From a virus (Duplodnaviria; Heunggongvirae; Uroviricota; Caudoviricetes): DNA of 42,689 nucleotides. Under the pieces are notes generated by a model, which ran no database searches, was not told the DNA's origin, and saw nothing but the letters and a program-made list of their open reading frames with translations. Numbering within the stretch: position 1 is the stretch's first letter; each line of letters starts with the position of its first letter. Shown piece by piece: positions 25,781 to 25,908 of this stretch. A program made the position numbers and the translations under genes. Location of the stretch: IMG/VR virus record IMGVR_UViG_2851938318_000009, positions 1-42,689 of that record; one strand, 5' to 3'.

Positions 25781-25908
25781 AAATGTTAACTGCTGCCTGG
25801 TTAACATTTGCTGAAAAAGCCAGTTAACATTTTTTTCGCACAACAAACTGAATAATAAAGATAAAAACCGAAAAAATGCCCGGGCAGCCAGTTAACATGT
25901 TAACTGGC
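25781..25908. promoter_or_regulatory. array of five CAGTTAACAT-type repeats including a 22-bp perfect palindrome; candidate cos / terminase recognition region
   Basis: GTTAAC cores at about 25785, 25800, 25823, 25891 and 25899; palindrome GCCAGTTAACATGTTAACTGGC at about 25887-25908; lies between HNH and the small terminase gene. Confidence 0.4.

Follow-up and report, generated by a model that had tools for sequence, protein, structure and literature searches.

The intergenic region between the HNH endonuclease and small terminase genes of a Shiga-toxin-type E. coli prophage contains five copies of the octamer core ATGTTAAC and an A+T-rich spacer. On the basis of sequence comparisons, these elements most probably (about 80%) form the small-terminase recognition region of the prophage cos and would be a functional analogue of lambda cosB. 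The putative assignment to terminase binding draws its support from the covariation of the repeat cores with residues of the predicted recognition helix of the small terminase (TerS). All coordinates refer to the analysed stretch of DNA, 42,689 nucleotides in length, referred to as the window.

Packaging genes and repeats of the hnh-terS spacer

The hnh, terS and terL genes are arranged in this order on the minus strand, with cos in the intergenic region between hnh and terS, as in HNH-dependent HK97-type modules. The HNH endonuclease gene (25998-26363), the upstream neighbour of cos, encodes a 121-residue protein (Pfam PF01844 HNH, E=5e-6). The 187-residue TerS (25145-25708; PF03592 Terminase_2, E=4.5e-8) is translated from a GTG codon at 25708, preceded on the same strand by the Shine-Dalgarno sequence GGAGGAGG (25711-25718). 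This start is backed by the Terminase_2 match, which begins at residue 2, and by the conserved N-terminus MLTTQKRKF. The large terminase gene terL (23487-25148) encodes a 553-residue protein of the HK97-like type featuring the Pfam TerL_ATPase and TerL_nuclease domains, presumed to be both the cos nuclease and the motor. A divergent plus-strand gene (26405-26632), located just upstream of hnh, encodes a 75-residue DUF3950 protein, and a DUF3950 gene is found at the same place in relatives (locus L330 and EP2851_49 of phage 2851).

A sequence-only reading of the window had placed the repeats between the HNH and small terminase genes, which both the open reading frames and the Pfam matches confirm, and had assigned the module to an HK97-like system. 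The latter assignment holds for TerL and the HNH protein only, as TerS is a Terminase_2 (SF6/SPP1 G1P-type) HTH protein, and the multi-site layout of the repeats is like that of lambda cosB. PF03592 was the sole Pfam match for TerS, with none to the Nu1 family, and sequence and profile searches of the PDB revealed no match to HK97 gp1. In contrast, the TerS family profile matched the DNA-binding domains of SF6/SPP1-type G1P proteins (4zc3, 2cmp and 3zqp, E=2e-4 to 7e-4) over the HTH. An N-terminal HTH, as in the PF03592 family, also appears in the AlphaFold2 model of TerS, in which residues 1-50 have pLDDT>90 and helices span residues 4-14, 19-25, 33-41 and 44-55. Residues 33-41 are the predicted recognition helix, and residues 32, 35 and 38 would correspond to its N-cap and first two turns.

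The repeat region (25781-25908) lies inside the 289-bp hnh-terS spacer. Five copies of a decamer had been described here. Four copies of CAGTTAACAT are exact, at 25783-25792 (-), 25821-25830 (+), 25889-25898 (+) and 25897-25906 (-), and no further exact copy exists elsewhere in the 42.7-kb window. The fifth, TGGTTAACAT (25798-25807), matches 8/10 bases and shares only the 8-bp core GTTAACAT. Half of the GTTAAC hexamers of the window (5/10) fall within 25785-25904. As also described, two overlapping copies build a perfect 22-bp palindrome, GCCAGTTAACATGTTAACTGGC, at 25887-25908. By chance, such clustering is rare: among 300 windows simulated with a first-order Markov model, one had a 10-mer with four copies inside 130 bp and seven had an 8-mer with at least five copies.

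Sites are numbered from the left end of the packaged chromosome, the position of which is discussed below. The palindrome comprises sites 1 and 2 (+30 to +51). Site 3 (25819-25832; minus strand AAATGTTAACTGGC) has its core at 25823-25830 (+108 to +115), and site 4 (25797-25811; minus strand AAATGTTAACCAGGC), the core-only copy, at 25800-25807 (+131 to +138). Site 5 (25779-25792; plus strand GCAAATGTTAACTG), with its core at 25783-25790 (+148 to +155), is inverted with respect to sites 3 and 4. A second dyad results from copies 4 and 5, with GCAAATGTTAAC and GTTAACATTTGC as 12-nt arms separated by 9 nt. Altogether, the cores span +34 to +155 in the orientations - + + + -. At the sequence level, the anatomy is that of a lambda-type cosB, in which at least three repeats of mixed orientation occur between cosN and the small terminase gene.

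The spacer that separates the palindrome from sites 3-5 (25833-25886) is A+T-rich and includes T-tracts; the GC content is 28% in 25820-25879 vs 55-68% in the flanks. A T-rich spacer is present in all lineages with extended arrays, in which TTATTATTCAnnTTGTT is partly conserved, and is presumed to be a bend or a flexible segment. No match to the IHF consensus WATCAANNNNTTR was found in 25833-25886 at up to one mismatch. A candidate with two mismatches, ATTCAGTTTGTTG, is partly conserved across lineages. Phased A-tracts were considered and discarded, as the T-tracts are spaced by ~7-9 bp, which does not clearly match the helical repeat; only A+T richness is claimed. A 24-codon reading frame starting at the palindrome ATG (MLTGCPGIFSVFIFIIQFVVRKKC) was also discarded, as it is devoid of a Shine-Dalgarno sequence and is shortened to 14 codons in locus L161 and 5 codons in locus L329.

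Cohesive end and constraint among close relatives

The cos end of one relative, the E. coli phage Lys8385Vzw, has already been published. PhageTerm analysis of virion reads revealed 3' cos ends of 10 nt, and the record terminates in CGCCCCCCCT (PMC7946995); the end was mapped in this relative through read statistics only. Lys8385Vzw (MT225100) is 95% identical, and its record begins 229 nt before terS. The record ends with ...GGACACCGCCCCCCCT and starts with CTCACGCAGAGAAAAAATTCC..., and the resulting junction ...CACCGCCCCCCCT|CTCACGCAGAG aligns at 25938|25937 of the window. For the window, a defined 10-nt 3' end within the hnh-terS spacer is thus given by homology to Lys8385Vzw only; the putative cosN core is 25938-25947 (minus strand CGCCCCCCGT). 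Contig L084, an independent assembly, begins within 1 nt of the corresponding cut point.

The packaged left end would start at 25937 and run towards terS, i.e., to lower coordinates, so that the repeats correspond to positions +30 to +157 and the terS start to +230. In lambda, cosB is located in this position. The sequence-only reading had placed cos and terminase-binding sites between hnh and terS. This is correct, but the cut itself maps, by homology to Lys8385Vzw, outside the repeat coordinates. The comparison with cos regions of related phages that it had recommended shows that the Lys8385Vzw end aligns 30 bp beyond the palindrome, with the repeats on the terS side.

The cut site is embedded in conserved sequences. 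The first 29 nt of the packaged left end (25909-25937; minus strand CTCATGCAGAGAAAAAATTCCTGTTTCAG) make up a conserved block, in which CTCAyGCAsAGAAAAAATTCC is maintained from E. coli to Burkholderia phages. On the right-end side (25948-25989), the minus strand features a G7 run followed by ...CGATCGCCCCGGACAC. This block, GGGGGGG...CGATCGC..GGACACC, was found again in 21 loci of other genera and in mid-distance lineages. The cos region of the window showed no sequence similarity to either the left end or the gp1 site of HK97.

Two local peculiarities were observed around the cut. The 15-nt segment 25763-25777 (CCCGGCGTCTCATGC), just past site 5, is 87% complementary to 25931-25945 (GCATGAGACGGGGGG) and is a second, inverted copy of the sequence across the inferred cut; it is missing in the other lineages compared. 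In the PPompW prophages LC567820, LC567824, LC567828, LC567836 and LC567841, an ISEc20 element (IS110 family) is annotated at the equivalent of ~25987. This is the point, between the HNH gene and the cut site, at which the match to the window stops; hnh and cos would thus be split apart by the element.

The spacer is 94-98% identical in ~92 phage records, nearly all of which are Stx1a-, Stx2a- or Stx2c-converting or related E. coli phages (for instance, 2851, 1717, YYZ-2008 and BP-4795). The segment 25709-25997 is present in 1243/5426 complete E. coli genomes (23%), in up to 7 copies per genome, and among the matches listed none carries an annotation under the spacer. From 80 viral contigs we derived 62 distinct spacer variants. 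Between the end and terS, core positions vary in 0/38 cases and other positions in 50/191 (Fisher p=5e-5, a value that overstates independence, as the variants are phylogenetically related). Across 236 loci, all five cores invariably read ATGTTAAC; positions 9-12, in contrast, differ between loci (TGGC, TGCC, AGGC, CAGG or TGCT). By this alignment evidence the conserved unit is the 8-mer and not the decamer, the outer CA/TG of which differs among close relatives. Since the core is invariant while positions 9-12 vary, the 8-mer is also the likely functional unit.

No description of the repeats of this phage group was found in the literature searched, including PMC7946995 and the cf-PICI preprint 10.1101/2022.09.08.507074. 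Literature searches made with the palindrome and overhang sequences gave nothing relevant among the 15 papers listed, out of 41 containing one or more of the three sequences.

Repeat classes, TerS helix residues and probable origin of the array

Mid-distance lineages share a common layout, in which the cut-site block is followed by a palindrome, a T-rich spacer, two direct copies and one inverted copy. The ATGTTnAC-N9-GTnAACAT arrangement of sites 4-5 is also found in loci L161, L164, L327 and L329. The sequence of the repeats varies. In L161, L162, L163, L327, L328 and L331, all copies read TGTTTA(T/C), often ATGTTTATACCC. L161 and L162 (encoding TerS P0021), L327 (P0004), the truncated L163 and L328 carry TATAAACATGTTTATA, ATGTTTATACCC, ATGTTTACAGGG and CGGTAAACAT, while L331, the TerS of which (P0069) is otherwise a compact-clade protein, carries GGGTATAAACATGTTTATAGG and three TGTTTATACCC copies. 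The palindrome has the changed core TATAAACATGTTTATA in L161, L327 and L331. In L164 and L329, the copies read TGTTAAC within flanks other than those of the window. The L164 palindrome (P0031), GGTGGTTAACATGTTAACCACC, is kept through changes on both arms, and L164 also features ATGTTAACCACC. The core of site 3 becomes either ATGTTTATACCC or ATGTTAACCACC in other lineages. Scans of viral contigs with P0021 and P0031 retrieved window-type loci only and added no lineages; a scan with the 14-mer ATAAACATGTTTAT gave unspecific A+T-rich matches, none of which was located beside a real cos block.

TerS proteins were sorted according to the helix following the AGYS turn, and the motif class was predicted before further loci were fetched. 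TTTA-type repeats, predicted for KSARCKG proteins, were found for P0004, P0011 and P0069, and TTAAC repeats, predicted for KTARVKG proteins, were found for P0010 and P0019. The ..KTARVKGSQL helix (Thr32/Val35) pairs with TTAAC (TGTTAAC), and the ..KSARCKGSQL helix (Ser32/Cys35) pairs with TTTAT/TAAAC, i.e., TGTTTAT(ACCC). The Ser32/Cys35 class includes P0004 and P0069, which share 88% (overall) and 48% identity, respectively, with the TerS of the window; P0069 is built on a different backbone. KG(W/Y)QL proteins (P0063, P0053 and P0089), in which residue 38 is Trp or Tyr, are associated with GTTACAC, the repeats being AAAAGTTACAC(CC), and P0082 (ERTARSQG, Thr32) is associated with GTTAACATGTTAAC and ATGTTAACAG. 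In the compact clade described below, the untranslated hexamer preceding the ATG is (G/A)TAAAC in 17/18 loci encoding Ser32 and (G/A)TTAAC in 4/4 loci encoding Thr32; the exception, L018, combines Ser32 with ATTAAC. The Trp/Tyr38 class retains Thr32/Val35 but has a different motif, so no simple one-residue code applies.

As a control, the motif class was compared with the identity of the other packaging proteins, which it does not follow. TTTAT-class loci encode TerL and HNH proteins 96% and 82-83% identical, respectively, to those of the window, while in the TTAAC-class locus L329 these values are 88% and 76%. Because the repeats are located 80-200 bp from the HTH codons, recombination would transfer both as one block, and part of the association between repeats and TerS could result from linkage rather than co-adaptation. 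Linkage does not explain the presence of one new core in all copies, or the joint change of the palindrome arms. Independent motif switches are few (~3-5).

More distant relatives were not recovered by scanning genome contigs with a single TerS protein, and an alignment query was used instead. This search identified TerS homologues, 33-48% identical, in 21 genomes of Kluyvera, Atlantibacter, Erwinia, Serratia, Enterobacter, Kosakonia, Citrobacter, Pantoea, Buttiauxella and Burkholderia. Salmonella phage FSL SP-016 is a further relative of this type, with GGAGGGTGTAAACATGTTAACAGCG in the Shine-Dalgarno/ATG region. These relatives feature the compact block GGGGGGG..GTAAACATCGATCGCsCTGGACACCGCGCCCCCTCTCACGCACAGAAAAAATTCCCCTCTGGAGGGTGTAAAC-ATG-TTAACAGCG, in which GGAGGG is the terS Shine-Dalgarno sequence and ATG the terS start. 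Usually there is one GTTAAC hexamer, at codons 2-3, and in three loci there are two. The palindrome of the window is orthologous to this Shine-Dalgarno/ATG segment; in the window the Shine-Dalgarno sequence is gone, and both flanks are altered to give a perfect dyad. A stretch of 178 bp (25709-25886), including the spacer, three more copies, and a new Shine-Dalgarno sequence and GTG start, is specific to the E. coli lineage. Given the single site over the terS start in distant relatives, the array looks like a lineage-specific expansion. It probably arose from the terS start region, in which an ancestral site (GTAAAC-ATG-TTAAC) overlapped the start codon. In the compact relatives L010, L013, L017, L018, L019, L022, L024 and L331, A+T-rich repeated motifs (e.g., GATATCAATTATCATTTG and TTGAAATCATTT) occur ~60-170 nt upstream of the G-run, a position taken in the window by the terminal part of hnh.

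This ancestry raises the question of whether terS 5' ends were duplicated by recombination near cos, with the repeats being leftovers devoid of function. ATG-TTA-ACx encodes Met-Leu-Thr, the conserved N-terminus of TerS, the palindrome is orthologous to the terS start in the 21 compact relatives and FSL SP-016, and ATGTTAACCAGGCAGCAG, which is site 4 plus flanking sequence, is similar to the six initial codons of terS (ATGTTAACAGCGCAGAAG). Duplicated terS starts are therefore a likely account of the origin of the repeats, but they leave their maintenance unexplained. Relics should decay, whereas the cores are invariant amid varying flanks. Moreover, in the TTTAT lineages every copy is ATGTTTATACCC, which differs from the terS start of the same phages (ATGCTGACGACG) and would be translated as Met-Phe-Ile-Pro. 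The L164 palindrome was altered jointly on its two arms. A perfect dyad was also gained despite the loss of the ancestral Shine-Dalgarno sequence. We thus regard the absence of function as improbable. Just as improbable is the binding of another protein for cutting or for late-transcription control, be it HNH, TerL, a nucleoid protein of the host or a regulator of the phage (e.g., DUF3950). The cos-adjacent position would suit HNH or TerL equally well, the DUF3950 gene is nearby at 26405-26632, and a plus-strand sigma-70-like match is built from the repeats themselves. Still, the motif class tracks recognition-helix residues of TerS and not HNH or TerL identity, satellite-like loci encoding their own TerS carry their own repeat type beside the same cut-site block, and compact relatives have no room for a promoter.

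Least probable of all is a role of the palindrome at the RNA level, as a hairpin of the late transcript involved in stability, processing or translational control of terS, the other copies being incidental. The minus-strand RNA is predicted to fold (-19.5 kcal/mol, z=-3.0) into a stem of 10 bp capped by a loop of 4 nt, pairing would likewise survive the changes on both arms in L164, and the palindrome is followed by a weak terminator-like element. However, any palindrome folds by construction, and the hairpin leaves unexplained the three non-palindromic copies with the same core, their concerted change and the link with the TerS helix; the terminator-like element has only 5 pairs and is not conserved in other lineages. 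A terminator or a promoter as the main function was rejected for the same reasons, the promoter-like match being made of the repeats.

Proposed mechanism and comparison with known packaging systems

Small-terminase recognition of the repeats may be envisaged by analogy with lambda, HK97 and SPP1/SF6. A cut at ~25938-25947 would yield 10-nt 3' cohesive ends, with the chromosome being packaged from 25937 towards terS. TerS, as an SF6/SPP1-type oligomer with N-terminal HTHs, would bind the palindrome (+30 to +51) and the three sites at +108 to +155, with the flexible T-rich spacer allowing the DNA to bend or wrap and several HTH domains to be engaged at once. From 30 bp away, the complex would direct TerL and the HNH protein to the conserved cut site. 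It might then be retained at the left end and initiate translocation in the direction of terS and terL.

The region combines features of three systems: the logic is that of lambda cosB, the chassis (hnh, TerL and 10-nt 3' ends) is HK97-like, and the reader protein is SPP1/SF6-like. Lambda cos consists of cosN and cosB (R3-I1-R2-R1), the latter being read by gpNu1. As in lambda, several short repeats, one of them inverted, are found between the cut site and the small terminase gene, all within ~160 bp from the left end, and a bendable segment separates elements. The two systems differ in several respects. Lambda has 12-nt 5' overhangs rather than 10-nt 3' ends, and gpNu1 is a winged-HTH protein unrelated to the Terminase_2 TerS. 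In the window, no IHF consensus was found in the spacer at up to one mismatch, an HNH protein accompanies the terminase, and one element is a perfect overlapping dyad. In lambda, 21 and N15, which have a common cut site, the repeat sequence and recognition-helix residues change together (PMC4669245); a concerted change of repeats and helix on one cut site is also observed here.

The order hnh-cos-terS-terL, the TerL Pfam families, the 10-nt 3' cohesive end and a TerS site (putative in the window) just downstream of the cut, on the terS side, are shared with HK97 (PMC11331095). In HK97, gp1 recognizes a single 15-bp site (+15 to +29), with the A-tract threaded through the ring channel (PMC11331095). 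In contrast, the window features five repeats over 125 bp and a TerS of another family, and thus does not conform to a gp1-type TerS with a single A-tract site. The TerS family (PF03592) and the N-terminal HTH fold are shared with SPP1/SF6. In SPP1, pacL and pacR are recognized by way of multiple repeated boxes, with the DNA being bent. Packaging in SPP1 and SF6 proceeds by headful from pac, whereas defined cohesive ends, an HK97-type TerL and an HNH partner are found here; the 10-nt end of Lys8385Vzw and the HK97-type TerL do not fit the imprecise ends of headful packaging. In the HNH-dependent S. aureus cos phages phi12 and phiSLT, HNH is needed along with TerS-TerL, and satellites exploit the cos machinery of the helper (background cited in 10.1101/2022.09.08.507074). 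Cos is located between hnh and terS in these phages as well, although hosts and sequences are unrelated.

Loci L165 and L166 (~1000-1200), L332 (~1270-1500) and L453 (~740-900) are satellite-like. They occur in primase/AAA_25 or AlpA contexts without an adjacent terL or hnh. The cut-site block, nearly identical to that of the window (GGACACCGCCCCCCGTCTCAT), is followed by their own repeats AAAAGTTACAC(CC), and each encodes its own TerS with KG(W/Y)QL in the helix. The layout, as read from the sequence, suggests elements that rely on TerL and HNH of a helper while having a recognition site of their own. It differs from S. aureus satellites, which carry a plain copy of the helper cos rather than their own TerS and repeats at a phage-type cut site.

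We tentatively propose, with somewhat less than even confidence, that, on a common cut site and a common TerL/HNH chassis, a few TerS-helix substitutions and matching changes in all repeat copies define at least three packaging specificities (Thr32/Val35 with TGTTAAC, Ser32/Cys35 with TGTTTATACCC and Trp/Tyr38 with GTTACAC), affecting cross-packaging among prophages and satellites, and that the array results from exaptation of the terS start. If so, cross-packaging among the prophage copies that reside together in a Shiga-toxin-producing E. coli genome, up to seven in number, would depend on these specificities, and TerS-encoding satellites having a phage-type cut site and their own repeats would take over the TerL and HNH of the helper. 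The principle is not new: it is already apparent from lambda cosB and from the packaging specificities of lambda, 21 and N15, and TerS-recognition repeats as such are ordinary elements. Knowledge of the cut site and of the probable TerS sites provides a defined minimal cos for Stx-phage transduction and cosmid-type assays, as well as a way to predict cross-packaged prophages and satellites. The natural set of TerS/site variants may serve to study DNA recognition by an SF6/SPP1-type small terminase in the context of cos packaging.

Away from the packaging genes, the early region of the window carries two IS3-family transposase ORFs of 296 residues each (rve and HTH_21, with identical Pfam scores) in inverted orientation, at 32611-33501 (+) and 37749-38639 (-). 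The pair is located between a NanS-p-like esterase gene (29599-31449) and the integrase gene (41394-42689), and the early prophage region may be rearranged or degraded.
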